Of a stretch of 64,000 nt of DNA, positions 7,237-64,000 are shown piece after piece; within the stretch, counting starts at the first letter, position 1, and each line of letters begins with the position of its first letter. The stretch is from Clostridia bacterium. Its GTDB lineage: Bacteria > Bacillota > Clostridia > TANB77 > CAG-465. The notes beneath the pieces are model-generated. The model made no database searches. It worked only from the letters and a program-made list of their open reading frames with translations, and was not told the origin of the DNA. Both the position numbers and the translations under genes were made by a program. Location: contig JAGAIU010000011.1 of assembly GCA_017626395.1 (NCBI GenBank), positions 20,917 through 84,916 on the forward strand. The letters run 5' to 3'.

Positions 7237-7264
7237 TCCCATAATCAAGTAATTAAGTGATTAA

Positions 7265-7495
7265 ATGAAGCCAGGATTAAATACGTATAAAAAAGCATAC
7301 AAAAAATGTGAAGAAGGATTAAAAATAAAAAAACACGCAACAAGTGCTGAATTATTAAATTGGTTGATAGAGAATTATAATCTATATTCATTAAATATAA
7401 CACCAAAAGGTATAACCTATTATTTAAAAACAAAAGGGTACCCCAAGAAACGTAAGTATGACACTAAACCCTATGTTTTTTACTATAAGGAATAA
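7265..7495 (+). CDS. small basic protein, possible DNA-binding (76 aa)
   Basis: Lys/Tyr-rich and co-oriented with the operon. Preferred over the overlapping antisense ORF 7245..7433. Confidence 0.3.
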   Translation: MKPGLNTYKKAYKKCEEGLKIKKHATSAELLNWLIENYNLYSLNITPKGITYYLKTKGYPKKRKYDTKPYVFYYKE

Positions 7496-7593
7496 AATAT
7501 TCCTTAAAAACTTTTTTTCTTTTTATACATTAGAGAAAATATTTACAAACAGCTTACATAAGATAAGCTAAATTTTTGGAGAAAGTGATTTGA

Positions 7594-32281: not shown

Positions 32282-33409
32282 ATGGTAGAATTAATAATTA
32301 ATGATGGTACTAATATATTAGATAATTTATGGCAAAATTTAATTAGCGTAGGTGCTAGAACTCGTCGACATGATAGTTCACATACAGGACTTTTATTTTC
32401 AGCAATTGCAACTGAAATAAATGTTGCAATTAGTTTATTACAGTCATACTCTAATCAATACTCATTAGATACTATGACAGATAAAGTATTGATTGAAAAT
32501 ATGTCCAGTCAATACGCTATTCGTAGATTAGCAAGTAAATCAAAAGCTATATTAACTTTTTATCGTATGGAAGGATATACAGAAGGGATTAGAATACCTG
32601 CTGGTTTTGCAGTAAAAGCTTCTGTTCCTGGTAATATTATATTTAAAACAGTATCAGATGTATATTTAAATAAAGGTACACAATCAGTCTCTGTTATGGC
32701 ATATTCATTAAATTCAGGTACACAAAATAATGTTGATGCATATACATTAACTATATGTGCTGACCCAAATTTTAATACAATGTTTGGTGTAACCAATAAA
32801 GAACCATCATTTGGTGCTTATAATGATGAATCCATATCCCATTTACAAGAAAGAGCTAAATCTTTTAGATGGGCTACAGAATACACTCAAAGAGATATAG
32901 AAAACCATATGTATCAAGTTGGTTTAACTGGTAGTGATTTCATGTTAGAAGAGTATATTGATGGTCCTGGTACTTATATGATTTGTGTAGATACAGATTC
33001 AGATTATGCTTTTGATGATGTTGTTAGCAGAATATCATATTATCATAATCGTGGAATACAACCTGTATATGTACGTGCTACAAGATTATATATTGATATG
33101 TACATTACAGTACAAACAGCACATGAAGTGGATTATACTCCAACAGAAAAAAATTCAATTTATAATAATATTAATAATGCGATACAAAGATTCTTTGCAG
33201 CATATTGTGCTATTGGAACTGATATTCGTATTAACGCATTAAAAGCAGCTATTAATAATGCATTAAGTGGTTATGATATTGCTGATGTTGAAGTAGACAT
33301 AGCAAATTCTGTTGTCGTAAATAAACGTAATGTTGTAGAAATTGGTAATACAACAAAAGCATATCCTAATAAAATTTTAACATCATTAGAATACGTAGGG
33401 GGAGAATAA
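32282..33409 (+). CDS. baseplate J-like protein
   Basis: KSKAILTFYRMEGYTEGIRIPAGFAVKASVPGNIIFKTVSDVYLNKGTQSVSVMAYSLNSGTQNNV resembles the gpJ/gp6 pattern (A-G-x-V-x-F...IPaGt-x-V...F-x-t...V-x-A-x-x-G-x-x-gNV). 375 aa. Confidence 0.5.
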   Translation: MVELIINDGTNILDNLWQNLISVGARTRRHDSSHTGLLFSAIATEINVAISLLQSYSNQYSLDTMTDKVLIENMSSQYAIRRLASKSKAILTFYRMEGYTEGIRIPAGFAVKASVPGNIIFKTVSDVYLNKGTQSVSVMAYSLNSGTQNNVDAYTLTICADPNFNTMFGVTNKEPSFGAYNDESISHLQERAKSFRWATEYTQRDIENHMYQVGLTGSDFMLEEYIDGPGTYMICVDTDSDYAFDDVVSRISYYHNRGIQPVYVRATRLYIDMYITVQTAHEVDYTPTEKNSIYNNINNAIQRFFAAYCAIGTDIRINALKAAINNALSGYDIADVEVDIANSVVVNKRNVVEIGNTTKAYPNKILTSLEYVGGE

Positions 33410-40000: not shown

Positions 40001-43000
40001 CAACATATTTAGACGCTATTAAAGAAGGTAATGTTTACTTTACAGTTGATAATGAGACAGTAAAATGTCCAGTATATGATTATGAAAGAAAAACAGAAGT
40101 TATTATTGATGACATTGATGAAGTACTAATTAATTATCAAATGCCAATCACAGCAAAAGTACAAAGTTGTGCCGATGTATATTATGAATTTGACAATAAT
40201 AATAATATTACTGAAAGTACAAAAACAATCAATGAAGGATATATTGACTTCTATATCGATAACAAACAAGTAGGACATGAAGCTGTAAGAAAAGGTAAAG
40301 CTCAAGCAAAAATATTCTTTAAAGATGCAATTTATGAGGAAAACACAAAATACGAATTAAAAGCAATTTATCATTCATCTGATAATTATTTTGATTCTCA
40401 ATCATCAATTAATATAACAACTATTACAGATGAAGATGTTTGCTTTGTATCTACTTCAGGAAGTGATAATGGAAATGGTAATTATAGTAATCCTTTCTTA
40501 ACATTATCAAAAGCAATTGCATCTAATAATAAAAAAATATTTTTACTTGAAGGAGATTATTATGCTGAAAATATTATAGTCACACATAATGTATCTATTA
40601 AAAAATACAATGGAGAAGTGAATTTTTCAAATAATACAGGCAATATTTTATTTAATATACAACCTAATGTAAAATTAAATATTTCAAAAATTAATTTTAT
40701 AGAAAATCAAACAACAATATTATTTGACAATTCTGGTAGTTTAAATATAGAACAATGTATTTTTTATAAAAATAAAAGTACATTATTTAAAAATAACTTA
40801 ACATCAACTTTATTTTCAGTATCATTATGTGCTATAGTAGATAATTATTTAATATCTTCTAATATTAATCCTAATCATTATTCATATTGTTGGTTTGGAA
40901 CTAATTCCCCTTCAGATGATTTTAATGATTATATAGTAATGACTACTAAAGTATCAAAAGATAAAATATATATAGGTAGTTTAGCTCATATTACAGCAGA
41001 ATTGAAACATTATAGTCATAATGGAGTACAATATAATTTAGATAATCCATTACCATTAAGAATAGCTAAATTTGCCTCTGATATTGGTGAACTTAAACCT
41101 GTTAAAGATTACACTTATCATAATAGTAGTACAAGTTTAATTAATACATTAAAAGATAACAATACATCACAATATATTATTAAATTAAAAAATAGAGTAT
41201 ATTATGATTCAGAAAAAATTAATCTGTTATTTAATGTTACTAATGTATTTGACGAACCAGTAGAATCTGGAATTTTAAAAGTTGTGATTACAAGCGAGAA
41301 TAATAAATTAGAAAACACTATTGATATCATTAATGGTCAAGCTACTTATAATCTACCAACATTACCAATAGACGAATATAATGTTAGTTGCACATATATA
41401 AAAGAGCAAATATACAATTTAAATACAACTTTTGTTGTTAAACCATTAGATATTATATTGCAAAATATACAATTAGATGAGTTTTCACACTTATATTATA
41501 CTCATATTACTGGAACTGCTGTAGATAATTTAGGTCAAAATATTAACGATGAAATATTAGACATTAAAATTAATGATGACAATGTAGGGACATTAATAAT
41601 AAACGATGGCGTCATAAATCAACAAATATCCTATAATCTACTCAAACCAGGTCAATATGAAATTATTTTAACAAATGAAGATAGACGCACAAAATATGAT
41701 ACATTACACTATACAATACCTTTAATAGTTAAACCACAAAAAACATCCATTGCTTTTGATTATAATACTATTGAAAAAGATATTAGTAATAATCTTATTA
41801 TTGAAATATACGACAGCGAAGGTAGAGAAGTACAATCAGGAACAGTTAGAGTAGATTTTAATAACGTCATTTATGAAGAAAGTATATCAGTTAATAATGG
41901 TATCGCAATGTTAAATAACTTTAATATTGATAATAGTGGGCAATATCCAATTGCTATATATTATACCGATAATGATGGGTATTATAAAGACTCTGTTTAC
42001 ATCAATAATAACTTTGGTGTTGGCATATATGGCGTAACTTTTTCATTATCTGATACAGATATTATTACAGCAGATATAGGAAAACAATTTGCTTTAAATA
42101 CAACTATTAAAGATGTAGGTAATCAATTAGTGAATATAGGATATGTAAATGTTTACATTGATGACAGCTTGTACGTTCAAAACGTAGGAATCAATAATGG
42201 AAACGTAAGTATTATTTCAGAATTACCAGAAAATATATCTGCTGGACTACATAGACTTACTCTTGAATATATAGGCGATGATATATATTTAGATACTTAT
42301 TTAGATATTTATTTAAAAATAGGTCAAATTCAAACAGAAATAGGTATTATTAGTACTTCAGGTAAAAGTGGGCAAAAATCAACAATTAATTACACAATTA
42401 ATTCAATATATGGAAACGTTAATACTGGAACATTAACAGCTGTTTTCAACGAACAAATTATAGGTCAATCTATTGTTACTGATAATATTACTAATCAAAT
42501 AACATTTAATACACCATTTTTACCAGCAAATAATAACTATGAAATTACCTTTAAATATCACGACAGTAATAATAATTATGCAGATAGTAGTATTACAACA
42601 AAATTAATCATTGAAAGAAGTAATGTTATTATTACACCACAAAAAACATGGTATTATCCTCAAAAAGATTTTAATTTTATATTAGATGTAAGAGATGCCG
42701 AAGAAAAAATTATTGATAATGGTAAAATCGATTTATATGTTAATAATGTAAAAGAATATGAAGACATATCTATTGTTAATGGTCAAGCTGTTATTCCAAT
42801 GATTTTTAATAAGGCATCAACATATACTTTTGATATTGTATATCAAGAAGATGAATACTATTTACAAACTAAAAAAACAATTGACTTTAATGTTGATAGC
42901 GTTGTTATAGATGATATTAACTTTAAAGATGAATTGTCAAGCTTGCCAAATAGAATGTTTTCAACTGAATTAATCTTCACAACATTAGATGATTACATTG

Positions 43001-45456
43001 TAAAAGATGGTGTTGTCGATATTTTATTTGATAATAATGTCATAGCAAATTATTATATGGCTGAAAACAATAAATATGTTGATTTTAATATTGGAAATGA
43101 AACCAAAGGATTACATAAAATTACAATTAAATATTATAATTCATCATTATTTAAAGACTTTGAAAAAACATATGATTTCAATATAGAAGCTAAATCTATT
43201 GATTTACGTATTAACACAAATAGTGAATATCAAAGCCAAAACATTGAAGCTATTAGTAGCGATATTATCAGTATTCAAACTGATTTTATACTTGATAATA
43301 ATTATACTCCAATGTCTGGAATTGTTAATTATTACATAGGTATTCCACAATATAAGATTAACAGCAACAATGAAGAGTATATCGATAGTTACTACGATAG
43401 ACTTATTGGTCAAGAAGAGTTTATTAATGAGACATCTAAAACACATGAATATATTCTTACTAATGATTTATTAGCATATACTGCTGATAATTTAGAAACT
43501 CATTATAGAATTAAAGCACATTTCATAGGCAACGATGAATATGAAGAATCCATAGAAACAGTTGATTTAAATATATATAAGCAAAATACACATATTATTT
43601 TGCCTTCAGATATGCAATTTGAATATCAGAGCAAAATGAATGTTAATATAGATATTATTAATAATAATAATGAAAATATAATTGGCGTAGAAAATGTTGA
43701 TATATATTTAGACGATGTTTTAGTATCATCATGTAAAACTATAGATGGAAAAGGTACTTTTACTTATCAGTTAAAGAATAAACATGTTATAGGTACATAT
43801 GACTTACGTGCAGTATTTAATGGTTCAGCTGTTAATAATCCATCTGAAACTACTGTTAGTTTTACAGTAACACCATTTACACCAATACTTAAAACAAAAG
43901 ATATAGACATGTATATACATGGTCAAAATACTTTAGATAATATTATTTATGATAAAAATGGAGTTATTATAGAAAGTGGTACCCTTAAATATGATACTCA
44001 TAATGGCGTTTTAGAATCCAAACCTAATGTGCCAGATGTAGTATGGTTTGATTCTGCTTTCAGAGATGATTGGGAATTAGATGTAGAATATATTAGTGAT
44101 GATTTAACAAAATACAATAACTTTCATGATACAATTCATGTTCATATGCATAAAAACCCTATTGAATTATCAATATATGCACCAGAACAAATATATCGTG
44201 GCGTACCTTTTGATGTAACCTTAAAAGCAAAAGCCCCAACTACAGCATATGATGTGAATTTAGACTTTTATAAAGAAGATGATGAAAGATATGTCATGCT
44301 TAATGGCTCTACTACTATATCTTTAATTTACCCTACTACATTGGAAGATAATTCTATTATTGAGGATTATATTAAAACAGATGGTAATGATATTTTTGAA
44401 GCTAATGAAATTTTATTAAAATTAAAAGTTAAAAACCAAGATAATATTACTGTAAATACTTCAATACCAGAATCAGCAACTAACACACATTCAATTCAAA
44501 AAGCAATTGATTTAGTAAGTGATTATGGTAGTATAGAAATAAGTACGCCAATAAGTAATCAAACAATTAATTTAACTAAAAATCTTACAATCAAAGGCGA
44601 TGCTACACTAACAAATTGTGTAATTAATAACGAAAGCAATAAAATACGTATTGATGGACTTACCTTTGAAAATGGAGAAGACACATGTATCAATAACAAT
44701 GCAAACATGACCATAATGAATTGTACATTTAAAAACAATCAAAATTCAGCAATAAAAACAAATGGAGAATTAAACGTTACACAATGTACATTTATAGGCA
44801 ATAATGCAGAAAAAGGTGCATGTATAAAAATCGGCAATAAAAATTATAAAACTAGCATTACATACTGTACTTTTAATGGAAATAATGCATCATTATATGG
44901 TGGATGTATTTATTCTGATAAAGTAAATGACATGGAAATATATAATAATGAATTCTCAAATAATAACAATGCTGGTGTTGGTGGTTCATCTATATGTGCT
45001 TATGGAGATATAGCAATTTCATTTAATACATTTTTCAATAATGCAGGAACTAGCGATATTTACTTATTACGTGGAACAACAGTATTAGAAAATAATTTAT
45101 TTGATGGTGCTATTACATCATTAAAAACACTTGATGGTAATGATATAGATTGTGATTTAAATTACTGGGGTTATAATGATATTAATGATATTTATAGTAA
45201 TAACCCTAATATTGAAATAAATAACTTTTTAATATCTGATTGCGAAATCATAGAAAAAGAAACTGGAAATTATATTATAGGTAGGATTAATAAATATATA
45301 AATCGTTTAGAAAGTGAAATTACTACTATAAATATATTAGAAAAACATTTCCCAGTTAAATTAAATGAAGAGCAATTTTATTTAAATGATGAGATAGCTA
45401 TTGAAATGAATGATACCTTTATGATAGGTCAAGATATAATTCATATTGAACATTGA
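34009..45456 (+). CDS. giant adhesin-like tail fibre/receptor-binding protein (3815 aa): Ig-like repeat arrays plus three parallel beta-helix modules
   Basis: Many about 90-aa repeats with the G-x-V-x-F-x-I(N/D)...A-x-Y-x-G...Y signature. Three right-handed beta-helix (PbH1-like) blocks rich in N-x-(A/S/G) rungs, each ending in an N-x-W(W/F)G-x-N-(S/T)-P-like motif (39769..39795, 40884..40910, 45161..45181). Follows the baseplate genes. Confidence 0.7.
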   Translation: MDYQELEDVYEFHRNMRKTPWLQLFPHWWDENDALLNAIGNEVERVKAQAVFVLLNAGIKPPVLLWQESINHETFNAHFNAKQLPKTVTIQAPLYETWGKITLTNNTEKDIDGLILKLDNSHGYAINQLITQEDILVINLTENKVLLNKKQIEPQTIGEGMPYFVTQQNNEVYDTNTPLHNEVIRLEISTNDTENIECDIDIDIELENAVFTNEQNIEITGLEAVPIDRVELYVKYDFSFNSKYNGWQKAWEKEYEKNTNVVYDRITTQIYTKEFYVDVYFKTLQYPYTVGFPCYKEATSKSPYHVNSRLDKWGEQLGLPRRLYKTEIPTNEYYRTFPIFYPFDIEQDYWYYKRLTSEYSWVESPVNDVDIKDTDGNNVIRLYSINPFTEDFAVHAKSRYPVDKEFINYNDYHPIAISQQTAKDIGVQTPYKDIINLLSDNNKKASITLNNYTDNNDVVYKRNKYYQKYDYITELGEGVYREGWKEPDSYKKDISYIKSSTHQSTELITYFDLSSLPQDVNIENIEFIVEAESTDNKKNKYATENTGVLIPNYNDSERFFIPLTADKSYQLKKQEITYSNDEVIDYLNNIKIADENIRQSFTIGEFQGKITDFVKIPFELEENSENVDDITDVWIYYNGNIRQASYKNDENGKYIYAYVPNLPIINTLTIICKSQTHKPFSYTINVNKYNQYSEDGTTIEYQYIQGPIVNDEHNEISDYVEWHTDNLRNLMQKQGIYFRHILKNTDEQSSTTVFLYNIQAKITYSPKKSNFKITTNITKKSDFPKIGTLNIKVENTGEKNFSSNVDIITPSNIVLSQNNIPIDLKVGQSLEKDIDITATYPIDDGFYDIVTICEDSIKKDSIEIFSDGLIATGVNLKSHHGKYNDTINLKAEVYAIDGGKINGTDSQVQFYINGFAVGNKVQVVDGLVEASISPKDYYFTGTGNLTLEAKFLGTTKYASSSNKSTIFISKDTTRIELISDNVAPYKGAFELKAKVEYYNGQGYVPVDAGTVEFYIDDEILSSNTTLVDGVFLSSINSIENPAGSYTLWAKYSGTESYVAVETSQPFEIIGGKSKISVFDIQAKPYSIIQLKAKVTDVNNKNIISGYVDFNIKNIHGEDVNFNTNITNIPVKNGLAISDDILLSVELESDFNTERYTIEAKYHNTLDSNNDELYGSSTAQGYIFVAKTDVILDYQSFYGTQYEPLGFYVRARDAETGAPVSNGKIAITLETEGVTIEEEVDDKGVARLIHNPLDFNAKDWSELEKFSFDVVDDDLHRYYNGTEFIADFDFFYNEQDGTLHYIKGKQNNENNEVSFIYNAETGKYDIIDTDTNDVIDDYDNEHLYITNGHLYARTTKDILRQYTIGTQNLKIEYISSGQYRSKTEYFDDGLQISQSNIDLDIHSYDLKYTDNDSIICYATKYTFTDDINTENINSGSVQFIVDNQVLDTVNIANGKAILKNSLLTNINGGQHLMCVKYANNNDTSYSYSLLKLTKMEPSLNILVDQEIKNKKSNVIVTLSASDNLNIPLNGLISLYLDDELIGTQYLNGNEMLPGIIDEYNIERLKEEMQLYSESERNIYIPGVIFSVLMPYDIDNHQLVAKYEGNEFLMPKTQTYQLSQIPAEIQINIKNNIYVARNEPCFIDVDVTYEDDIINEGKIVLTYGDEEIASSNVLDNKARLTWTPSSNNLLNTYVITYTGSTNYKDKHITANINVIDPLKTITIPNEQQHTLEDALMCLQSNGTIYITDDIILEKSIEITKDCSIIGENGVSIIKDIKELPIDFNILQNISTEQMQHMYKLDLSFEDINATDFTFIDNQLYIKGKTEMIPIYLAENGVFYSETPLSKILSDLNIIIKANVHFDNLTFKSNDSKILNNFVIYNESNCLITYSIIEKTAKLYNKGNMTAHRNLIYGLCQNVTDLDNNWWGSNTPPYNVNNHIIIDVKAVNTPAVISEEVEIEGEMIGANGQYYTIPQTDFSFTADSGYFSVDTGKVTNQKAHTTYLDAIKEGNVYFTVDNETVKCPVYDYERKTEVIIDDIDEVLINYQMPITAKVQSCADVYYEFDNNNNITESTKTINEGYIDFYIDNKQVGHEAVRKGKAQAKIFFKDAIYEENTKYELKAIYHSSDNYFDSQSSINITTITDEDVCFVSTSGSDNGNGNYSNPFLTLSKAIASNNKKIFLLEGDYYAENIIVTHNVSIKKYNGEVNFSNNTGNILFNIQPNVKLNISKINFIENQTTILFDNSGSLNIEQCIFYKNKSTLFKNNLTSTLFSVSLCAIVDNYLISSNINPNHYSYCWFGTNSPSDDFNDYIVMTTKVSKDKIYIGSLAHITAELKHYSHNGVQYNLDNPLPLRIAKFASDIGELKPVKDYTYHNSSTSLINTLKDNNTSQYIIKLKNRVYYDSEKINLLFNVTNVFDEPVESGILKVVITSENNKLENTIDIINGQATYNLPTLPIDEYNVSCTYIKEQIYNLNTTFVVKPLDIILQNIQLDEFSHLYYTHITGTAVDNLGQNINDEILDIKINDDNVGTLIINDGVINQQISYNLLKPGQYEIILTNEDRRTKYDTLHYTIPLIVKPQKTSIAFDYNTIEKDISNNLIIEIYDSEGREVQSGTVRVDFNNVIYEESISVNNGIAMLNNFNIDNSGQYPIAIYYTDNDGYYKDSVYINNNFGVGIYGVTFSLSDTDIITADIGKQFALNTTIKDVGNQLVNIGYVNVYIDDSLYVQNVGINNGNVSIISELPENISAGLHRLTLEYIGDDIYLDTYLDIYLKIGQIQTEIGIISTSGKSGQKSTINYTINSIYGNVNTGTLTAVFNEQIIGQSIVTDNITNQITFNTPFLPANNNYEITFKYHDSNNNYADSSITTKLIIERSNVIITPQKTWYYPQKDFNFILDVRDAEEKIIDNGKIDLYVNNVKEYEDISIVNGQAVIPMIFNKASTYTFDIVYQEDEYYLQTKKTIDFNVDSVVIDDINFKDELSSLPNRMFSTELIFTTLDDYIVKDGVVDILFDNNVIANYYMAENNKYVDFNIGNETKGLHKITIKYYNSSLFKDFEKTYDFNIEAKSIDLRINTNSEYQSQNIEAISSDIISIQTDFILDNNYTPMSGIVNYYIGIPQYKINSNNEEYIDSYYDRLIGQEEFINETSKTHEYILTNDLLAYTADNLETHYRIKAHFIGNDEYEESIETVDLNIYKQNTHIILPSDMQFEYQSKMNVNIDIINNNNENIIGVENVDIYLDDVLVSSCKTIDGKGTFTYQLKNKHVIGTYDLRAVFNGSAVNNPSETTVSFTVTPFTPILKTKDIDMYIHGQNTLDNIIYDKNGVIIESGTLKYDTHNGVLESKPNVPDVVWFDSAFRDDWELDVEYISDDLTKYNNFHDTIHVHMHKNPIELSIYAPEQIYRGVPFDVTLKAKAPTTAYDVNLDFYKEDDERYVMLNGSTTISLIYPTTLEDNSIIEDYIKTDGNDIFEANEILLKLKVKNQDNITVNTSIPESATNTHSIQKAIDLVSDYGSIEISTPISNQTINLTKNLTIKGDATLTNCVINNESNKIRIDGLTFENGEDTCINNNANMTIMNCTFKNNQNSAIKTNGELNVTQCTFIGNNAEKGACIKIGNKNYKTSITYCTFNGNNASLYGGCIYSDKVNDMEIYNNEFSNNNNAGVGGSSICAYGDIAISFNTFFNNAGTSDIYLLRGTTVLENNLFDGAITSLKTLDGNDIDCDLNYWGYNDINDIYSNNPNIEINNFLISDCEIIEKETGNYIIGRINKYINRLESEITTINILEKHFPVKLNEEQFYLNDEIAIEMNDTFMIGQDIIHIEH

Positions 45457-52467: not shown

Positions 52468-53547
52468 ATGCTTACAATATATGAATTAAGAGATTATTTA
52501 GAAGAATTTATTGAAGAAAAAAAAGAAGTAAAAAATATCACAAATGCTACGATGAAAAAGCAAACCATTAATATAAAAAATTTTATAAAATGGCTAGAAA
52601 AAGAAAACATACAACAAATAGACAACAGAAATATAAAGAGATGCTTAAGAAAATATCGTAGCTACTGCTTAAATGAAAGGAATAATAAAAGAACCACAGT
52701 CAAGACATACCTGCTAAATGTGATAGATTTTTTAAATTACGAAGAAATCAGAATAATAACAGGACATGAAAAAATACACATCAAAGAAATAATAGAAGTC
52801 AAAAGCGAAAATCCTGATACAGCAAGAAAACGTATTGAAAAAATATCACTAACAAGAAAACAAACTGATTTCTTTTTAGACACAGTAAAAAGAACTGGCA
52901 ACATTAAAAACTATGCAATATGCAGAACTTTTATTGAAACTGGCATGAGATTAAAAGAACTTGTACTATTAGATAAAACAGATATAAAAGTACCATTAAA
53001 TAAACAAGGACTTTATATACTACCAAACGATAAATATGAAATAATTGAAGTACATTTAAGAGCAGAAAACACAAAAGGACAATACAAAAGCAGAACCACA
53101 TTTATAACATATGACACACTTGTTGCTATCAATCAAATGATAATGTCACGCATAATCGACTACCAAAAAAAGAAATATCAACGTGATATAATTAAAGTCA
53201 GAAAAAAAAGAGTAGAAAACGAAATAAATCGTCAAGAACTATTTACAGCAGAAGGAGATAGAAGATTCACCAGACGTGGAGTACAAAGTTTAATTAAGCA
53301 ACAAACAAAAAACTGCGATACAAGAATAGAAGAAGAAAATATAAAATGCCCAATCAATTACTTTAAAAATGTTAGCACACATATATTAAGACACACAGCA
53401 TTATCTCGTTACGCTGAAATATTAACAGTAGCAGAAGTGCAAACAATAGCTGGACATGCTAGTAGTTCTACAACAGATAGATACATACATATTGACCATA
53501 GTAAAATAAAAGAAAAAATTAGAATGAGTATGGAGGAAGATAAATGA
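52468..53547 (+). CDS. int: tyrosine recombinase / phage integrase
   Basis: Arg I in ETGMRLKEL. H-x-x-R in HILRHTALSRYAE. Catalytic Tyr context GHASSSTTDRYIHI. N-terminal SAM-like domain. 359 aa. Confidence 0.85.
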   Translation: MLTIYELRDYLEEFIEEKKEVKNITNATMKKQTINIKNFIKWLEKENIQQIDNRNIKRCLRKYRSYCLNERNNKRTTVKTYLLNVIDFLNYEEIRIITGHEKIHIKEIIEVKSENPDTARKRIEKISLTRKQTDFFLDTVKRTGNIKNYAICRTFIETGMRLKELVLLDKTDIKVPLNKQGLYILPNDKYEIIEVHLRAENTKGQYKSRTTFITYDTLVAINQMIMSRIIDYQKKKYQRDIIKVRKKRVENEINRQELFTAEGDRRFTRRGVQSLIKQQTKNCDTRIEEENIKCPINYFKNVSTHILRHTALSRYAEILTVAEVQTIAGHASSSTTDRYIHIDHSKIKEKIRMSMEEDK

Positions 53548-53903
53548 TATATACAATTAATGGAGAAGAAGTAGACTATATACATATAGATAAAGTCTCA
53601 AACAGAATTGATATTCAATATTATGAAAAATTTGATGTCGTAACAGCTCATACAAACAGAATAGTTAATAAACTAAAAGATAAACAAATCAATGCTATAG
53701 TATGTAAAAACTTATATCGTGGCTATATAGGATTCTTTTTAGAACATATCGAAGATTACATCGGTGTTATTCACATACTTGAAATGCCAATGAACGCATG
53801 CCAAGTAGACAGAGACAATAACTTCTTACTCTTACGCATAGATGAAATACCAAAATACCACAACAAAAGCTTTGAAGAAATATTAGAAAAAGCAGAGGAA
53901 TAA
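53544..53903 (+). CDS. hypothetical protein (119 aa) downstream of the integrase
   Basis: ATGA overlap with the int stop. No motif. Confidence 0.4.
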   Translation: MIYTINGEEVDYIHIDKVSNRIDIQYYEKFDVVTAHTNRIVNKLKDKQINAIVCKNLYRGYIGFFLEHIEDYIGVIHILEMPMNACQVDRDNNFLLLRIDEIPKYHNKSFEEILEKAEE

Positions 53904-53904
53904 A

Positions 53905-54681
53905 ATGAATAAAAAATTAATTATTTTATTAATTATTTTCGCAATTGCTTCATTAAATACTGTAAGTGCTGGAAACAATACAACAGTAGTTGATAATCCT
54001 ATAGTGGTTGTAGAAGATGGTCCTACAGTAGAAGCATTAGAAAGTGGTGATTCTAACATATCCTTTAGTAATGGATACAAAGGATACTGTATTGAATGGG
54101 GAGAACATTCAGCAGAAGCTGGAGATAAATTTTACATTCATGAAGACGTAGATAACAATATAAAAGTATTCTTTACATACTTCTACAAAGAATCACAAAA
54201 AGACACCATAGCAACACAACATATGATTTGGAAATTTACAGATAACAAAGAGTTCAGCAGATTTAATCAAACATTATATAATCAAATTATAAATGTATCA
54301 AAAAATATAAAAGTACCTAATGAAGGTACATTAAAAATAGACAATACAACAGAAATGGTATTCAGTTTCAAAAATTTTGTCTCACCAATATCACAACATC
54401 AAAATTATTTCGGCTATAAGATTTTTTTCAGAAATATTACCCATCAAATAAATGAATCTTCGACCAATAATATTACACTTATATTACCACAACTATATAA
54501 TTATGAAAGCAACTTTACATTTAATGAAGTGATTATTAATAAAAGTAATAATTCAACTCATACATCTACATCAAGTAGTGAAAAAATATTATTCTCTAAA
54601 CATGTTACTGGAGTCAACCTCCCATGGTATTTCATTTGCGTCATATTCATGATATTCGGGATTATAATAATAAGAACGTAA
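53905..54681 (+). CDS. secreted, C-terminally membrane-anchored protein (possible lysogenic-conversion/exclusion protein)
   Basis: Signal-peptide-like MNKKLIILLIIFAIASLNTVSAGNNTT. N-glycosylation sequons (NxS/T) are frequent. C-terminal LPWYFICVIFMIFGIIIIRT anchor. Confidence 0.45.
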   Translation: MNKKLIILLIIFAIASLNTVSAGNNTTVVDNPIVVVEDGPTVEALESGDSNISFSNGYKGYCIEWGEHSAEAGDKFYIHEDVDNNIKVFFTYFYKESQKDTIATQHMIWKFTDNKEFSRFNQTLYNQIINVSKNIKVPNEGTLKIDNTTEMVFSFKNFVSPISQHQNYFGYKIFFRNITHQINESSTNNITLILPQLYNYESNFTFNEVIINKSNNSTHTSTSSSEKILFSKHVTGVNLPWYFICVIFMIFGIIIIRT

Positions 54682-55002
54682 CTCATCAGCTGTTGTTGTT
54701 GGTGTATAAGCTATAATTTTTTGTTTTTTATTTTTTATTTTTAAACGCTTATCTAAAAAATTTTTTGCTCTCCAGAAGTCTGGGTCATAAAAAATACTTA
54801 ATGGATTATCAGGATGTAAAGATATTAACTTCCAAACCCATTCATTCGGATTTAAACCTTTAGGTTTTGTATAAGTTGCTGGATGAATAATTCTTATTCT
54901 ATAATTCATATCAATTTTCTTCTTCACCATTCCAAACCCACGCATCACATACTTTAACCTTACCTGCATCACATGACATATAAGGATGAGAACAATTATC
55001 AC
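54589..55002 (-). CDS. hypothetical protein; likely real start at internal Met (MVKKK, about 54930)
   Basis: The first 24 codons overlap the upstream gene and are hydrophobic junk-like. Basic and W-rich protein. Last gene of the leftward accessory operon. Convergent 3' overlap with 53905..54681. Confidence 0.35.
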   Translation of the reverse strand: MIIVLILICHVMQVRLKYVMRGFGMVKKKIDMNYRIRIIHPATYTKPKGLNPNEWVWKLISLHPDNPLSIFYDPDFWRAKNFLDKRLKIKNKKQKIIAYTPTTTADELRSYYYNPEYHEYDANEIPWEVDSSNMFRE

Positions 55003-55540
55003 AACTTTTATTTTGAACTCTTTTACCTTTACGACAACGTATTAAACAATCTTCTCTACAATAACGCTTTTCTATATTTAATTCTTCTTCAGAGTCAGCA
55101 TGATATTCTTTATCTAAAATAGAACAATTATTATCCCAACATGATTCATCTATTGGTAAATTATTTATAATTTCTTCTGCCCTTTTATTATATGAATCAT
55201 CTATATCACGATAAACCTTCTCATAAAAATTATCACAAGTCATATCAAAAAACATATAAGCAGTAAGTTGTTTATTAAGTTCATAAAAACCTTTTTCAGC
55301 CATTTTATTTGCAAAAACTTTCTCATAATCCCAAAAAATATCATCAAAAGTAAAATTAATTCTAGGATAACAAACAGAAATAGGGTCGTTATCAATTTTA
55401 TACTGACAACATTCCTTAAACAATTGAAAGACTATATCTTCAAATTCTTCTTGAGTATATTTATCATTTGAATAATATATAGTTTCATAATGTTCTTCAT
55501 ATCCACCAGCTAAAAGTTTATAAAAATATATCATTTCCAT
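54911..55540 (-). CDS. Cys-rich hypothetical protein (209 aa), putative metal-binding C-terminal domain
   Basis: CWDNNC...CREDCLIRC...CDNCSHPYMSCDAGKVKVCDAW. Lies in the leftward accessory operon. Confidence 0.45.
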   Translation of the reverse strand: MEMIYFYKLLAGGYEEHYETIYYSNDKYTQEEFEDIVFQLFKECCQYKIDNDPISVCYPRINFTFDDIFWDYEKVFANKMAEKGFYELNKQLTAYMFFDMTCDNFYEKVYRDIDDSYNKRAEEIINNLPIDESCWDNNCSILDKEYHADSEEELNIEKRYCREDCLIRCRKGKRVQNKSCDNCSHPYMSCDAGKVKVCDAWVWNGEEEN

Positions 55541-55713
55541 GCCTCCTGTAATAATGTTATAGTTTGTATAGTAAAACTAAAAAATATCATTCCAAATAAA
55601 AAAGAAGGTAAATTTAAAGGATATTGTGTATTAATAACACCTGCAAATATTAATATAATTGGTGCTATAACAGCACAATATATTATTAAAATAAATATAG
55701 GTTTCCATTTCAT
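55531..55713 (-). CDS. small membrane protein (60 aa)
   Basis: Two hydrophobic helices (IFILIIYCAVIAPIILIFAGV; FLFGMIFFSFTIQTITLL). Overlapping start/stop with its neighbours. Confidence 0.35.
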   Translation of the reverse strand: MKWKPIFILIIYCAVIAPIILIFAGVINTQYPLNLPSFLFGMIFFSFTIQTITLLQEAWK

Positions 55714-56141
55714 AATAATCTTAAATCTCCAGTAATATTATCTATATCTTCCCTAGTAAAAGGACCAATACCTAAACAAGTAATTGAGCCATTAGTTACT
55801 TCAGTACGTCCTTCATCAATTACTAAAGCATTAGGAATCTTTTGTTCATCAGCTGCTCTTTTTAACTCTAATAAATCTGAAGTTGTCTCAACTTGTAAAA
55901 CAATTTTAGGATAAGAATTATCCAACCAACCAGCAGCTACAGACTCATTAGCTTCTAATAAAGATAATACTGATGCATGAGCTACTTGTGCAGCAATCTT
56001 ACCAACTGACATTCCTAAACTTTTATTAACCACTATAACTTGTTTGAAGTCTCCATCTTTGAAATTTTTATTAAATTTAATTGCTCTTAAAAAACCATTT
56101 GCTTTTAAAACATCTATTTTAACATTGTTTGTATCTTTCAT
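55710..56141 (-). CDS. pth2: peptidyl-tRNA hydrolase, archaeal/eukaryotic type (Pth2)
   Basis: GMSVGKIAAQVAHASV and DEGRTEVTNGSITCLGIGPFTREDIDNITGDLRLL align closely with the PTRH2/Pth2 family (KMGKGKVAAQCSHAAV ... [35 protein letters not shown]). 143 aa. Confidence 0.85.
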   Translation of the reverse strand: MKDTNNVKIDVLKANGFLRAIKFNKNFKDGDFKQVIVVNKSLGMSVGKIAAQVAHASVLSLLEANESVAAGWLDNSYPKIVLQVETTSDLLELKRAADEQKIPNALVIDEGRTEVTNGSITCLGIGPFTREDIDNITGDLRLL

Positions 56142-56145
56142 AATA

Positions 56146-56988
56146 TCACTCTTCCATTTCTTCTAAAATTTGACGAAATCTAGTATTATAAATTTCTATA
56201 TCTGGTAACTCTTGCTTTTTACCTTGAGCAGTTTTAGCAACCTGTAAAAAAGTATGTATCCAATTACTTAAGTTCATAATTGCTCGCTCACTTAAGCGAT
56301 TAAGTTTGCAATTACTTTTGTAATAATCTATGCAATCACGCATATCTTGTAATAATTGGTCGGAAAATTGTAACCCATCAATTTCAAGGTCTTTGAATTT
56401 ATCTAAAAGCTCATCGATTTTAATTGGAGCATTGATGTCGTCGAACTCATCAATTAATAACCAAGCAAGTATTTGACGAATACAGTAGCAATATGTTTTG
56501 ACAACACGTGGGGAGAAATCATCTGTACGTGTGCCTTTAATATACTTCATGTAGTTGTTATAAGTCATACTACCATATGCATGTTTTAATGTGGTTAAAT
56601 CAAAATCAGGCAATCCTTTTAAGAAATTACAATCACCACGATAAATCATAGTGTGTAATATGTGCTCTCGTAAGTTAGGGTTACTTTTTCTGTATTGAGA
56701 AAGAACTTTAGTAATATCCCATCCAGAAAAATCTAAATCATATAAATACTCTTTTTCTTCTAAATCATGATTATCAATAACATCTCTCATTGTATCTATA
56801 CGTAAGTAATCTTTTACAGGTCTTATATAGAAAAAACGTATATCATAATCAGAATCTTCATTAGAAAAGCCCCAGCCACGAGAACCAGTTTCAACAGCAT
56901 ATAAAACTTTTACATTAAATTCCTCTTCAATGTTATCAAGCTCTTGATTTACATAGTCGTAAATATCTTTATCAATACCATTAATCAT
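56146..56988 (-). CDS. Pol-beta-superfamily nucleotidyltransferase with C-terminal helical domain (predicted NTase)
   Basis: N-terminal LYAVETGSRGWGFSNEDSDYDIRF matches h-G-S-x(9-13)-D-h-D-h. A further acidic strand YDLDFSG. 280 aa. Lies immediately upstream (in operon order) of pth2. Confidence 0.6.
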   Translation of the reverse strand: MINGIDKDIYDYVNQELDNIEEEFNVKVLYAVETGSRGWGFSNEDSDYDIRFFYIRPVKDYLRIDTMRDVIDNHDLEEKEYLYDLDFSGWDITKVLSQYRKSNPNLREHILHTMIYRGDCNFLKGLPDFDLTTLKHAYGSMTYNNYMKYIKGTRTDDFSPRVVKTYCYCIRQILAWLLIDEFDDINAPIKIDELLDKFKDLEIDGLQFSDQLLQDMRDCIDYYKSNCKLNRLSERAIMNLSNWIHTFLQVAKTAQGKKQELPDIEIYNTRFRQILEEMEE

Positions 56989-57190
56989 TAAAAAACCTCC
57001 ATAATCGTCTTATAACCCTATTATTATGTTGCCAATGGTTGCATAAATTATCAGGATTTTTAAATAACATATCTTTATCACATACAAAAGTTCTTAAGCC
57101 CATACCCTTTCTAATAATACCATCAGGTGATATATATTCATCATTTTTAAGAATTGTACAATATTGACAGTTTTCACAAGAAGGTATCAT
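56981..57190 (-). CDS. small zinc-ribbon protein (69 aa)
   Basis: CENCQYC...VCDKDMLFKNPDNLCNHW. Confidence 0.4.
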   Translation of the reverse strand: MIPSCENCQYCTILKNDEYISPDGIIRKGMGLRTFVCDKDMLFKNPDNLCNHWQHNNRVIRRLWRFFND

Positions 57191-57600
57191 TCCTCATCAC
57201 CTTCAAGGATAACATCAAATACTGCTCCTAAAAATTTCTTTTGCCCCATTAAATCATATGCTTTTTTAATTAAATTTTTCCCTTTACCATCAAACATATC
57301 CTTAAAATCAACTGGCATATTACCTTCTTGTATATAAAGTATAGGGTTTCCAACTTGTGGAATTAACATATTATAACTTCCATCTTTACTTGTAAAAATT
57401 TCACACACTTTTCCAGTATCACAATCATCTGGAAACGCATTAGAAAAAGATTCATTATCTTCTATAGTAGTATGAATATATAAATCACTATGAATTGGTG
57501 TCCCTTCTGGAAACATACTTAAAAATTCTATAAATTCATCAGTTGTCCATTTATATGCATTATCCCATCTATCTTTTCCTACTTGCTTGTACATCAACAT
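57187..57600 (-). CDS. hypothetical protein (137 aa)
   Basis: Overlapping start/stop within the leftward operon. No motif. Confidence 0.4.
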   Translation of the reverse strand: MLMYKQVGKDRWDNAYKWTTDEFIEFLSMFPEGTPIHSDLYIHTTIEDNESFSNAFPDDCDTGKVCEIFTSKDGSYNMLIPQVGNPILYIQEGNMPVDFKDMFDGKGKNLIKKAYDLMGQKKFLGAVFDVILEGDEE

Positions 57601-57883
57601 CTATATCTACCTCAATACTTCTTAACGCTTGAATAGGTGTAATACTTACTAAACCTGTCTTATAATCAATTAAAAAATTTTTTAAAAACCCACCATTCCA
57701 CATGGGCTTAATCTCGTTTTCATATATATAATCAAGTACACAAGGAATTACTACAGTAGTCTTGGTTCCTTTAAGGGTGTTAAAATCCTTAAAATCTGCT
57801 CTTGAAAAATCAGCTTGACACTCTTTTATTCTTTCTGATGCGTACTTAATAATCTCGTAAATATCTTCCTTCATATAAAACAC
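57569..57883 (-). CDS. hypothetical protein (104 aa)
   Basis: Within the leftward operon. No motif. Confidence 0.4.
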   Translation of the reverse strand: MFYMKEDIYEIIKYASERIKECQADFSRADFKDFNTLKGTKTTVVIPCVLDYIYENEIKPMWNGGFLKNFLIDYKTGLVSITPIQALRSIEVDIDVDVQASRKR

Positions 57884-57948
57884 AAATTATCCATAAAATA
57901 CAAGCTGTACACTCTTTAGGTACAGGAGCGTTTACATAATCAATTACG

Positions 57949-58500
57949 CTATTCATTAAATCGTCTGACACTATATCTATCCTCTGTAACTGTACACAAA
58001 TCTGTAAAATCTGTTTTTGGCACAAAACTCATTTCATCAACTTCAAAAGTTGTATCGCCAATAGTCATAGTTCCCCCACCACATTTAATGCTATGTTTAT
58101 CATAAAAATCTTGTACAGGACCTATAATAATACCTTTAACTTCTTCACGATATTCACCATCGAATAAATCTAATACTCGTCCATTGCCAGAATAATACTG
58201 CCTACCATCAGTATAATAGAAAGTATTAGCATCTAATATATCATTAGGATAGTTTTCATAATTAGGAAAGGGCTCAAAAAGATATTTGCCACCACATAAA
58301 TGTAAAACATTTTCATAATTTTCGGCAGGCATAATATATGCTGGTGGCTCAATGCAATGGATAAAAGTAAAAGTCATTGTTGTATAAAGACTTACATTAT
58401 ATTCATCATACAATTTTTTAATCTTATCAGCTGTAGCAAACCATGGGTTTTCATAATAGAATATTGCACTTTCACAGGCACTATAATCTTCAGGTTTCAT
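57949..58500 (-). CDS. hypothetical protein (183 aa), first gene of the leftward accessory operon
   Basis: Aromatic-rich (Y/F/N). Starts right at the divergent promoter region. Confidence 0.4.
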   Translation of the reverse strand: MKPEDYSACESAIFYYENPWFATADKIKKLYDEYNVSLYTTMTFTFIHCIEPPAYIMPAENYENVLHLCGGKYLFEPFPNYENYPNDILDANTFYYTDGRQYYSGNGRVLDLFDGEYREEVKGIIIGPVQDFYDKHSIKCGGGTMTIGDTTFEVDEMSFVPKTDFTDLCTVTEDRYSVRRFNE

Positions 58501-58612
58501 TTAAAATCACCATATAGTATTCGATATAATTAATCATATAATTAATTATGCAATTAATCATTTAAATACTTAACTACTTTAGAAATTACAGTATTAATTT
58601 AAGGTGATAGTC
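58501..58612. promoter_or_regulatory. divergent promoter/operator region with three contiguous 12-bp direct repeats (ATAATTAATCAT / ATAATTAATTAT / GCAATTAATCAT at 58526..58561)
   Basis: Read directly. Lies between the leftward accessory operon and the rightward endolysin gene. RBS aaggtga at 58601..58607. Confidence 0.4.
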
Positions 58613-59491
58613 ATGACTAAAAAAGAAAACGTTGCTAAAATAGCAAAAGAAGTTAAAACAAGCGTGGAAAAAAAATATAAAATTCCAAGCAAAACAGATG
58701 CAGGAATAGGATATACCTATCCTGAATATGCATATATATTAGCAAAAGCAGTTATAACACCAGGTAAAGATGTTGCACATAAAAAGAACATAGGTGAGGC
58801 ACCTAAACCTTCTGGAAGTACAATATCAAGAACAGTTAAAAAAGGAGACTATGTAAAATTAGCTAAAAATTTAATATCTTTTGTAGACAATAACAAAAGA
58901 CTACCAAATTATCTTACATATGGTGGATACAAAATTAGAACTAGAGTATATATTGATGCTTTTGCCAGAATAGTTAATTATTATTACACTAATAAAAGAA
59001 TGCCTGCTTATGTAAATGTAAACAGTAAAGCATTTACCAAACCATCAACAGCAGCACAAAGTAAAGACGAAGTATTTAATTACTTTGTTAAAAAATTCGG
59101 TAATGTTAAAACTATCGATGAAGCCTTTAATAAGGTAAAAGAACGGGGATATGGATATTATTACGACGACGTCTACTCTAACAAGACTTCTATCGATAGA
59201 ATGTATTCTAAATCAGGTATTAACTGTACAGACAGTTGTCAAGTATTTTGGCACATAGGTAAAGCATTAGGATATTCCGTTCGTTGTTTACACGTTAGAT
59301 GTTCAGGTGGAGATGGACACGTAAGATTACAGTTTAAACATCCTAAAAATACAGAAGGAAATTGGATTAATCGTGACCCAGCTGCAATTTTATCAGCTAA
59401 TGGTCGTCCATTAACTTATAATTGGTGTACTTCCAATTACACATTATTAGCGACTAATCCGAGCTGGTTTACTGCTAATCTCAACAGATAA
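58613..59491 (+). CDS. PeiW/PeiP-like pseudomurein endoisopeptidase (endolysin) with pseudomurein-binding repeat; ORF-track start 58604 is a GTG, and the ATG at 58613 is preferred
   Basis: N-terminal KGDYVKLAKNLISFVDNNKRLPNYLTYGGYKI plus a second partial copy (...NKRMPAYVNV) resembles the PMBR. C-terminal NCTDSCQVFWHIGKALGYSVRCLHVRCSGGDGHVRLQF...NWINRDPA is the Cys-His-Asp core. Confidence 0.7.
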   Translation: MTKKENVAKIAKEVKTSVEKKYKIPSKTDAGIGYTYPEYAYILAKAVITPGKDVAHKKNIGEAPKPSGSTISRTVKKGDYVKLAKNLISFVDNNKRLPNYLTYGGYKIRTRVYIDAFARIVNYYYTNKRMPAYVNVNSKAFTKPSTAAQSKDEVFNYFVKKFGNVKTIDEAFNKVKERGYGYYYDDVYSNKTSIDRMYSKSGINCTDSCQVFWHIGKALGYSVRCLHVRCSGGDGHVRLQFKHPKNTEGNWINRDPAAILSANGRPLTYNWCTSNYTLLATNPSWFTANLNR

Positions 59492-59554
59492 AATATTTAA
59501 ATACTTAAGAAATTAATAAATTAATTGCCCAACAAGGCAATCACCTCCATTCCT

Positions 59555-62766: not shown

Positions 62767-62773
62767 TGATAAT

Positions 62774-64000
62774 ATGACAAAAGAAGTTAATGCACAGATT
62801 AATTTTCAAAAAAATTGTGAATACGAATCATCCACAGCTAATAGAACTATCTTTATAGAACCTCAAAGTGTTGAAATTGAAATCACAATTGTTAATCCAA
62901 ATAATGAATTATATAATAAAGAAAAAAATTATTATGATGAAGTTTTAGAAATTACAGCATCTGTTTTTCAAACTCAATCTAATGGATTAAGGAAAACTAT
63001 ACAAACAGGACGTATTGAATTTTATTATCAAGCAGATGACTCTAATAATATTAAATTAATAAATAAAGATTCAAATTCATGTGTATTAACAACTAATGGT
63101 ACAGCAGGTGTAATATATAGACCTGAAAAATCTGGTAAAATTATTGCAAAATATATAGATGATAAAGAATGGTATAAAACCACAGAACAATCTGCTACTT
63201 TTAAATTATACCCAATACCAATTGATATTAAATTTATTAAAAAACCACCCTATTTAACTCATCTAGAAGACAGCGTAGAGTTACAAGTACAAGTAACAAA
63301 AAGATACCCAAAAAATGAAAACGATGTGTTAAATTATGGTGTTGTAACTTTTTTACATTATTTAGAGCATTATGATATGGATAGCCCAAATAAACGTATT
63401 GAACGTGTTATTGGAAATCCAGTAATTGTTAAAGATGGTATTGCTACAATCAAATATATTCCTATACAGGAATATAGTGATATTGAACCTACACAATTAA
63501 TAGACAATATAGAATATATTAGAGCTATTTATAATTACGATAATGATTTATATTATGCATCTGAAAATGATACTTATAGCTATGAAGTATATTATTATGA
63601 AGAAGAATTACAAACAAATAAATGGCAATATTATGGCTCTGCAAATACATATACTAATATAGCTATTTATAAACCTAATTCTGTAACTATAGGTGTGTCT
63701 AATAAAACATTATCAGTAGATAAAATGTATCATTATGCAGAAGATGAAAATATAATTTTAAGAGCTATATTATATGATGACGATGAGCAAATTATATTAC
63801 AACAAGATGATGTTAAAACATTAACTTTTCATGTAATAGGAACATATTCAACTTTTAATAATAATTTAATCGAAAACTACAATCAAGATAATTTTATATA
63901 CCATCCATATGAATTAGATGTTAATTATGATAATTATAATAATGGTATATTTACAGCAACACTTCCTAAACTTAAACCTGGTGTATATACAGTACAAGCA
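62774..64000 (+). CDS. Ig-like repeat fibre/adhesin-like protein, 3'-truncated at window edge
   Basis: Manual translation from the ATG at 62774 (MTKEVNAQINFQKNCEYESS...) is open for 409 codons to the window end. Big-like repeat signatures (TGRIEFYYQAD...GTAGVIYRPEKSGKIIAKYIDD). Confidence 0.45.
   Translation, partial: MTKEVNAQINFQKNCEYESSTANRTIFIEPQSVEIEITIVNPNNELYNKEKNYYDEVLEITASVFQTQSNGLRKTIQTGRIEFYYQADDSNNIKLINKDSNSCVLTTNGTAGVIYRPEKSGKIIAKYIDDKEWYKTTEQSATFKLYPIPIDIKFIKKPPYLTHLEDSVELQVQVTKRYPKNENDVLNYGVVTFLHYLEHYDMDSPNKRIERVIGNPVIVKDGIATIKYIPIQEYSDIEPTQLIDNIEYIRAIYNYDNDLYYASENDTYSYEVYYYEEELQTNKWQYYGSANTYTNIAIYKPNSVTIGVSNKTLSVDKMYHYAEDENIILRAILYDDDEQIILQQDDVKTLTFHVIGTYSTFNNNLIENYNQDNFIYHPYELDVNYDNYNNGIFTATLPKLKPGVYTVQA

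Follow-up and report, generated by a model that had tools for sequence, protein, structure and literature searches.

Nucleotidyltransferases of the RlaP family take their name from an association with RNA ligases in RNA-repair systems, count T4 NrdC.11 among their members and carry three strictly conserved Asp residues (PMC12776372). In a December 2025 preprint, Pseudomonas RlaPs were found to add one or two nucleoside monophosphates to an RNA 3'-OH, with a preference for the 3' end made by a colicin-E5-type tRNA break, and RlaP was required to regain aminoacylatable tRNA after over-damage (PMC12776372). The authors of the preprint flagged a problem with this chemistry, in that the 3'-OH product is mismatched to the 3'-phosphate ligase RtcB (PMC12776372). 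RlaP and PTH2 are both listed as counter-defence genes of jumbo phages, and in the scheme of Iyer et al. (2021, PMC7824862) RlaP replaces lost nucleotides prior to ligation while PTH2 frees peptides from cleaved tRNAs on jammed ribosomes. Here we describe a 64,000-nucleotide stretch of contig JAGAIU010000011.1 (the window), a tailed archaeal virus or provirus in which an RlaP gene is followed directly by a Pth2 gene within a block of small minus-strand genes. On our preferred reading, the functional unit is not the whole nine-gene block but a small mobile cassette of RlaP and Pth2, often joined by two further genes of the block, g6 and g2. This cassette sits in an accessory-gene hotspot beside the lysis gene of Methanobrevibacter-type tailed viruses.

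An initial annotation of the window had placed nine leftward open reading frames (ORFs) in this block. All nine were confirmed and span 54589-58500; they are given below from the first gene of the block onward, followed by the spacer that separates the block from the gene for the pseudomurein endoisopeptidase (Pei) lysin.

57949-58500, minus strand: g9, ORFan of 183 aa, first gene of the leftward block
57569-57874, minus strand: g8, ORFan of ~101 aa; listed from a GTG at 57883 (57569-57883), the ATG at 57874 being likelier
57187-57600, minus strand: g7, ORFan of 137 aa
56981-57190, minus strand: g6, zinc-ribbon-like protein of 69 aa; its stop overlaps the RlaP start by 8 nt
56146-56988, minus strand: g5, RlaP-family Pol-beta nucleotidyltransferase of 280 aa (PF10127); core gene of the cassette
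55710-56141, minus strand: g4, Pth2 peptidyl-tRNA hydrolase of 143 aa; starts 4 nt past the RlaP stop
55531-55713, minus strand: g3, peptide of 60 aa with two hydrophobic segments
54911-55540, minus strand: g2, Cys-rich protein of 209 aa
54589-54909, minus strand: g1, ORFan of ~106 aa; listed as 137 aa from a GTG at 55002 (54589-55002), the ATG at 54909 being likelier
58501-58603, no strand: AT-rich divergent intergenic region between g9 and Pei; presumed two-way promoters

The product of g5 had been called a minimal Pol-beta nucleotidyltransferase (NTase). That call was right, and the protein can be placed more exactly in the RlaP family. It matches Pfam RlaP PF10127 ("RNA repair pathway DNA polymerase beta family") over residues 12-201 with E=1.4e-39 and 136.8 bits, against a gathering score of 23, and also matches phrog_14344 (E=1.1e-41). 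Its tblastn identity to phiKZ gp237 and to the BcepSauron and Eowyn NTases is 30-38%. The Pol-beta catalytic signature (hG[GS] plus three conserved Asp) is present, and G35-S36-R37, D47, D49 and D86 (window numbering) are invariant across RlaPs of archaeal viruses, of cells, of jumbo phages (phiKZ gp237, BcepSauron, Eowyn) and of Pseudomonas RtcB operons. Structure prediction agreed with the hidden Markov model (HMM) searches: the AlphaFold 2 model of g5 (pLDDT 92.4) consists of an NTase domain and a C-terminal helical domain, with the terminal helix packing back on the NTase domain, and this two-domain fold agrees with the one described for PfRlaP (PMC12776372). The solved folds nearest to the model were ANT(3'')(9), AAD(9), GlnE, KNTase and HEPN-like helical domains. 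By analogy with the Pseudomonas enzymes, viral g5 probably adds nucleotides to damaged RNA 3' ends.

In these respects g5 resembles the members of known RlaP RNA-repair systems, namely T4 NrdC.11, phiKZ gp237 and the Pseudomonas RtcB-RlaP-RtcA operon, with which it shares PF10127, the hGS, DxD and third-Asp residues and the two-domain fold. The T4 and jumbo-phage members are virus-borne, as is g5. Unlike the jumbo-phage RlaPs, g5 belongs to an archaeal host setting, and its carrier is a 60-kb-class, temperate-looking virus. The gene neighborhood also sets g5 apart from the known repair systems, as no RNA ligase, Pnkp or RtcA/B was found in the 64-kb window (tblastn, Pfam) or within 8 kb at the related viral loci of 13 lineages (tblastn). 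The window likewise yielded no polynucleotide kinase, tRNA or structured RNA.

The neighboring gene, g4, had been called an archaeal Pth2, and this assignment also held. The protein matches PF01981 (E=7.7e-35, 120 bits against a threshold of 23) and TIGR00283 (110.8 bits, cut-off 82); its score against NF003314, 122.3 bits, falls slightly under the threshold of 126. It aligns end to end with the solved archaeal Pth2 structures 1rlk, 1wn2, 1rzw and 1xty, and keeps the motifs GKIAAQVAHA and D-x-G-x-T-x-V, identical with 1rlk and 1wn2. From work on S. solfataricus, we take the active-site residues of Pth2 to be the Lys of G-K-x-x-A-Q-x-x-H-A and the Asp and Thr of D-x-G-x-T. Judged by these features, g4 encodes a complete and intact Pth2. 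It carries an N-terminal extension of ~31 aa and falls within a viral clade of Pth2 proteins of 137-143 aa that are 61-99% identical to it. Identity to phage Pth2 proteins is 33-42%, with a match to phrog_1866, and 33 phage records, among them those of mycobacteriophages and the phiM12 group, have an annotated Pth2. Jumbo-phage PTH2 (PMC7824862) and the Pth2 of mycobacteriophage and phiM12 type belong to the same family as g4, and their proposed role is the release of peptides from damaged tRNAs under host RNase attack. Since Pth2 is the type of hydrolase native to an archaeal host, the "foreign enzyme" argument put forward for bacteriophages is inapplicable here.

To place the pair in context, 205 loci were gathered from assemblies, IMG/VR, GTDB genomes and JGI metagenomes and scanned by tblastn and a purpose-built Pth2 HMM. 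RlaP returned 177 homologue clusters at E<=1e-10, ~90 of which were at least 60% identical. A single-protein pattern scan of IMG/VR gave no matches, and alignment-based scans were needed to find relatives. In the GTDB genome scan the closest locus among the matches listed was 38% identical, which is little informative on the frequency of the provirus in Methanobrevibacter genomes. Related viral lineages were defined as those with a viral-type RlaP at least 53% identical and sufficient flanking DNA, and 13 lineages qualified.

In six of the 13 lineages Pth2 lies immediately downstream of RlaP on the same strand (the window and its ~95% identical relative L204, L004/L005, L171, L172, L190/L191 and L197-200). 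The remaining seven carry RlaP without Pth2 (L006, L009/L173, L176, L177, L192-194, L195/L196 and L205), and in two lineages Pth2 occupies the same hotspot without RlaP (L201 and L202/L203). Where the two genes are paired, order and strand are fixed, and in six of the seven such loci that were compared (with the window and L204 counted as two) the junction falls between -10 and +4 nt. The initial annotation had proposed that the co-occurrence of the two genes be examined in other proviruses, and by this count the NTase and Pth2 form a genuine, recurrent and tightly coupled pair. Across the six paired lineages the RlaPs are 70-78% identical and the Pth2s 42-67%, and the pairwise identities of RlaP correlate with those of Pth2 (r=0.77). 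Behind RlaP, Pth2 occurs as two subtypes, one of 137-143 aa with the N-terminal extension and one of 118-132 aa without it, which suggests at least two independent pairings. In the pig-gut viruses L197-200, RlaP and Pth2 make up the entire opposite-strand cassette, which lies between the lysin and fibre genes; this Pth2 sequence is listed in 49 assembly-index blocks. The locus is, as had been suggested from its position, a variable accessory region of an archaeal virus, and its content differs greatly between relatives.

Two of the loci with RlaP alone had other features in their surroundings. On the 52-kb contig L205, the 53%-identical RlaP is immediately preceded by a gene for an ASCH-domain protein (PF04266; L205 5387-6840), which may represent a further partner of viral RlaP. 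The 170-kb contig L192, which may be a large archaeal virus, has many small genes on one strand, including a 72%-identical RlaP without Pth2, a TFIIB-like gene and an ERCC4 nuclease (L192 3706-4413 and 8001-8834).

The RNA-ligase association that is typical of the RlaP family is a contextual rather than a sequence criterion; it is absent from the window and is found in a cellular sister clade whose RlaP is 48% identical to g5. These cellular genes lie in a Methanobrevibacter-type context (TatD, TauE, glycosyltransferases), and in five loci (L007, L008, L179, L180 and L181) RlaP is followed directly by an ATP-dependent RNA ligase (PF09414 and PF21189). Unlike these cellular loci, about half of the viral lineages have Pth2 in the directly downstream slot that the ligase holds. 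The methanogen ligase beside the cellular RlaP could supply what the virus lacks. The canonical RlaP-ligase pair of methanogens can be seen at L007 6001-7995, where RlaP precedes a ligase of 398 aa.

Outside the archaeal viruses, Pth2 was found within 8 kb of RlaP in 3 of 160 bacterial and phage loci, all three being large IMG/VR phage contigs (3/80 IMG/VR loci), and in none of the 80 cellular RlaP loci searched over the same distance. Pth2 lies upstream of RlaP on the same strand in two of them, at 0.9 kb in L082 (226 kb; 6264-8605; confirmed by Pfam) and at 2.2 kb in L069 (156 kb; 5403-8477); the third, L048, gave a weak Pth2 match. L082 and L069 are independent cases of Pth2-RlaP proximity outside archaeal viruses. 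The RlaP neighbors of phiKZ, BcepSauron and Eowyn gave no PTH2 match; in BcepSauron, RnlA lies 0.7 kb upstream of RlaP. In jumbo phages RlaP and PTH2 share a genome but are generally not adjacent, whereas here the two genes abut and move together. A similar arrangement is found in the nanohaloarchaeal virus DNTV-1 (bioRxiv 10.1101/2025.02.15.638363), where Pth2 stands beside a tRNA-repair enzyme as it does in the window. The DNTV-1 partner is a T4-like RNA ligase 2 (Rnl2), the virus and host belong to another lineage, and its authors read these as auxiliary translation genes.

The best reading of the locus, in which we place moderate confidence, is that of a virus-borne tRNA-repair and ribosome-rescue (counter-defence) cassette that relies on a host ligase. 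In such a scheme, a tRNA-directed nuclease, from host defence or from a competing element, would cut or trim tRNAs, and ribosomes would stall with damaged peptidyl-tRNA. By cleaving the peptidyl (or N-blocked aminoacyl) ester, Pth2 would release whole or fragmented tRNA and ease the block to translation. RlaP would restore the one or two missing nucleotides at the exposed 3'-OH, and a host ligase would reseal the tRNA, the obvious compatible partner being the 3'-OH/5'-P ligase encoded beside the methanogen RlaP. The sequence contributes family membership, catalytic motifs, the tight linkage, the lack of a viral ligase and the cellular RlaP-ligase pairing to this reading, and the literature contributes the chemistry of RlaP and Pth2; from these we infer the substrate, the trigger, the timing (lytic or lysogeny) and any role of g2, g6 and the five ORFans. 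The initial annotation had offered two alternatives, and of these tRNA repair or recycling as anti-defence fits, the NTase being an RlaP, while abortive infection by a toxin and antidote is left unsupported.

Several points weigh against a repair and rescue cassette. With no ligase, kinase or tRNA gene in the window, the repair pathway is incomplete without a host enzyme, and RtcB, the universal archaeal ligase, requires a 3'-phosphate that is absent from the RlaP product (PMC12776372). Nucleotide addition has been shown only for the P. fluorescens and P. aeruginosa RlaPs, both from bacteria (PMC12776372). The coupling of RlaP to Pth2 is facultative, since only about half of the related viruses have the pair and either gene can be found by itself, and the shared accessory-gene hotspot inflates the apparent linkage. 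A position on the opposite strand beside an integrase is typical of genes expressed in lysogeny, not of early lytic counter-defence. To our knowledge, no tRNA-targeting defence has been demonstrated in Methanobrevibacter.

The same chemistry could instead serve the lysogen, with the provirus protecting host tRNA and translation from ribotoxins of competitors or superinfecting elements. We regard such lysogenic conversion as possible but rather unlikely. The block runs opposite to nearly all other genes and lies beside the integrase and lysis genes, a classic moron position; many relatives are on contigs of 100-170 kb, which fits integrated proviruses; and Methanobrevibacter keeps a chromosomal RlaP-ligase pair, indicating that the function is useful to cells. 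However, the integrase is absent from the near-identical L204, hence the adjacency is not conserved, and in the seemingly large non-integrated viruses L192 and L205 RlaP is part of long same-strand arrays of small genes, where early lytic expression fits better.

Slightly more doubtful is the absence of any functional link, with RlaP, Pth2, g2, g6 and the ORFans being independent cargo of a hotspot beside the endolysin and Pth2 perhaps doing no more than raising translation capacity. Each gene is found without the others in related viruses, hotspot content is highly variable between relatives, and five of the nine genes occur only in near-identical genomes, all of which would be expected of independent cargo. 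Set against this are the fixed order and orientation of RlaP and Pth2, with overlapping or abutting codons, over six lineages at the identities given above, and the viruses L197-200 in which the pair alone is the whole cassette. That long and short Pth2 subtypes both stand behind RlaP, that Pth2 came to lie close to RlaP independently in bacterial jumbo-phage contigs, and that the g2 family is linked to either partner likewise argue for a connection between the two enzymes.

A tRNA-repair role might also be imagined without a ligase. RlaP, Pth2, g2 and g6 would then form a ligase-independent pathway for repair of tRNA acceptor ends in archaeal viruses, unrecognised so far, although we consider this variant speculative and improbable. 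On tRNAs with 3' ends trimmed or modified by a methanogen defence, Pth2 would remove the peptidyl or blocked aminoacyl group, RlaP would rebuild the 3' nucleotides directly, and g2 and g6 might act as specificity factors or nuclease inhibitors. If this were true, methanogens would have an undiscovered antiviral defence directed at tRNA 3' ends.

Bacterial NTase toxins such as MenT and AbiEii act on tRNA acceptor ends, and in GNAT-toxin systems Pth detoxifies N-acetyl-aminoacyl-tRNA. The MenT/AbiEii toxins have the Pol-beta superfamily fold in common with g5, as well as tRNA acceptor ends as their arena; these toxin systems and the GNAT/Pth systems differ from the locus in that g5 belongs to another NTase family (no sequence match or top-ranking structural match), has no obligate partner and is accompanied by no GNAT gene in the block. 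The proposal in the initial annotation that a MenT/AbiEii-like NTase blocks tRNA 3' ends with Pth2 or another small gene as antidote, for abortive infection or superinfection exclusion, draws on the prophage moron position of the block and on the fact that nucleotide addition to RNA 3'-OH could in principle block aminoacylation, but it is very improbable. Searches with g5 gave no match to AbiEii, DUF1814 or NTP_transf_2 at E<=0.1 and none in PADLOC. In seven viral lineages RlaP has no Pth2 with it, in cells its neighbor is an RNA ligase, and in two lineages Pth2 has no RlaP, a separation not expected of toxin and antidote. Bacterial RlaPs have been over-expressed in and purified from E. coli (PMC12776372). 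A defence or toxin-antitoxin assignment was also tried for the block as a whole and rejected, there being no PADLOC defence-model match for any of its nine proteins and no AbiEii/MenT-type Pfam match.

Returning to the tRNA-repair and ribosome-rescue cassette, the genes around the pair differ in how far they recur. The nine genes had been taken as one system; outside near-identical relatives, only RlaP, Pth2, g2 and g6 are recurrent. The g2 family is tiny and unannotated, with 11 matches in a search of 5.8 billion proteins and 42 representatives in a library of 1.84 billion. Its members share invariant Cys residues at 45, 57, 134 and 139 and a D-E-S-C-W-D motif, and most have a C-terminal Cys cluster that is lost in the shorter homologues. 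In L201 and L202, where RlaP is missing, a g2 homologue comes directly after Pth2, and in L176 and L183, where Pth2 is missing, one comes directly after RlaP; this linkage to either enzyme makes g2 a candidate partner. For g6, the pattern CxxCxxC...C...CxH was read from the sequence, and searches gave no Pfam, PHROG or PADLOC match. Its homologues are directly or closely upstream of RlaP in L004/L005 (74% identical), in L171 (54%, overlapping the RlaP start) and in L204 (93%).

The other five genes, g1, g3, g7, g8 and g9, had no homologues among the 205 loci other than in the near-identical L204. The ORFans g1, g7, g8 and g9 are 83%, 82%, 95% and 95% identical to their L204 counterparts, respectively, and gave no Pfam, PHROG, NCBIfam, PADLOC or PDB sequence match. 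The product of g3 is probably a small membrane protein, with hydrophobic segments at about residues 5-26 and 37-55; its conservation is confined to L204 (93%), and its sole family signal is a sub-threshold match to DUF423. L204 has an extra gene of 73 aa between g6 and RlaP (L204 5333-5554), pointing to turnover of small genes even within the core of the block. As five genes are shared with L204 alone and both the integrase and the 73-aa gene vary, the block is best described as mosaic cargo assembled about a few recurrent core genes.

The phage literature already covers the two enzymes and the counter-defence roles proposed for them, and the locus is therefore not a new kind of system. The literature searched, which did not cover the founding RlaP paper (Burroughs & Aravind 2016), described no RlaP-Pth2 pair in methanogen viruses, which is consistent with the view of the initial annotation that such a pairing was undescribed, although the components and their proposed roles are known. 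What appears to be new is the physical coupling of RlaP and Pth2 as a mobile unit, the presence of Pth2 in the slot directly downstream of RlaP that an RNA ligase holds in cellular homologues, and the occurrence of the cassette, accompanied by two unannotated partner families, in viruses that infect methanogenic archaea. The gain is incremental: the RNA-repair systems known from phages are modestly extended to archaeal viruses. Little is understood of the viruses that infect gut and rumen methanogens, and next to nothing of their responses to host defences. A recurrent RlaP-Pth2 cassette would be the first sign of a conflict over tRNA damage and repair between methanogens and their viruses, as for T4 and jumbo phages. 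It also offers a compact two-gene system bearing on the still speculative role of RlaP in vivo and on the proposed rescue by viral Pth2 of ribosomes stalled on cleaved tRNA, and it points to g2 and g6, two small families without annotation, as candidate partners.

Within the block, junctions overlap or nearly abut (-32, -4, -8, +4, -4 and -10 nt), and ribosome-binding sites resembling GGAGG or GGTGA precede most starts. The first gene, g9, has a GGTGAT site 8 nt upstream, and the ATG of g1 at 54909 is 1 nt past the g2 stop, with a purine-rich stretch upstream. Selection was gauged by a crude pN/pS comparison of the window with L204. RlaP was the most constrained gene of the block (0.07), followed by g9 (0.11), g2 (0.20), Pth2 (0.21), g6 (0.21) and g8 (0.24), and at these values the six look like real, constrained genes. 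Constraint was weak for g7 (0.52) and g1 (0.71), and g3 had too few differences. The spacer at 58501-58603 has TATA-like runs, and its assignment as a promoter region is inference only; a scan of it for the sigma-70 consensus, which is not applicable to archaea, did no better than shuffled sequence. An AT-rich motif, ATTTAAATACTTAA..., is repeated at 58553-58588, upstream of the Pei gene, and at 59488-59523, upstream of the next fibre-like gene, and may serve both genes as a late promoter containing a TATA element.

The principal features of the window around the block are as follows.

4100-5695: TerL (Pfam scan of the window)
5695-7053: portal (Pfam scan of the window)
32282-33409: Baseplate_J (Pfam scan of the window)
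52468-53547: tyrosine integrase (PF00589)
58604-59491: Pei pseudomurein endoisopeptidase, the lysin (Peptidase_C71 and PMBR)

With TerL, portal and Baseplate_J upstream and Big_3_5 Ig-like, fibre-type genes flanking the block on both sides, the region lies inside the virus, in agreement with the viral origin assumed at the outset. The Pei lysin, together with a G+C content of 25-33% over the window, indicates a Methanobrevibacter-type host, and the source names of the homologues concur. Nearly all genes of the window are on the plus strand, 54589-58500 being the sole sizeable minus-strand block, and GC skew goes negative across 54-59 kb, as expected of such a block. The block had been described as lying between the integrase and Pei; these flanks were borne out, with the correction that two plus-strand genes (53544-53903 and 53905-54681) intervene between the integrase and the block. 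A megablast search of INPHARED with window positions 40000-64000 gave no match.

The integrase and the adjoining gene of 119 aa (window 52468-53903) are missing from L204, as seen by comparison with L204 7854-10625, where the 258-aa gene is followed directly by a 621-aa fibre-like gene. Near-identical viruses thus differ by insertion or deletion of the integrase module. In the window, the 258-aa gene (53905-54681, plus strand) runs convergently into the 3' end of g1, with an overlap of 93 nt that is kept in L204; its product has hydrophobic N- and C-termini and a weak match to a thioester domain (TED, E=7e-4).

Two further regions of the window were noted. The final 1.2 kb (62767-64000) contains no ORF of at least 85 aa on either strand and no tRNA or Rfam match, and may be non-coding or mark where the virus ends. 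The structural module contains two giant plus-strand ORFs, at 17239-25737 (2832 aa) and 34009-45456 (3815 aa), and the former ends with an Asn-rich tail encoded by a 15-nt tandem repeat (25655-25729).

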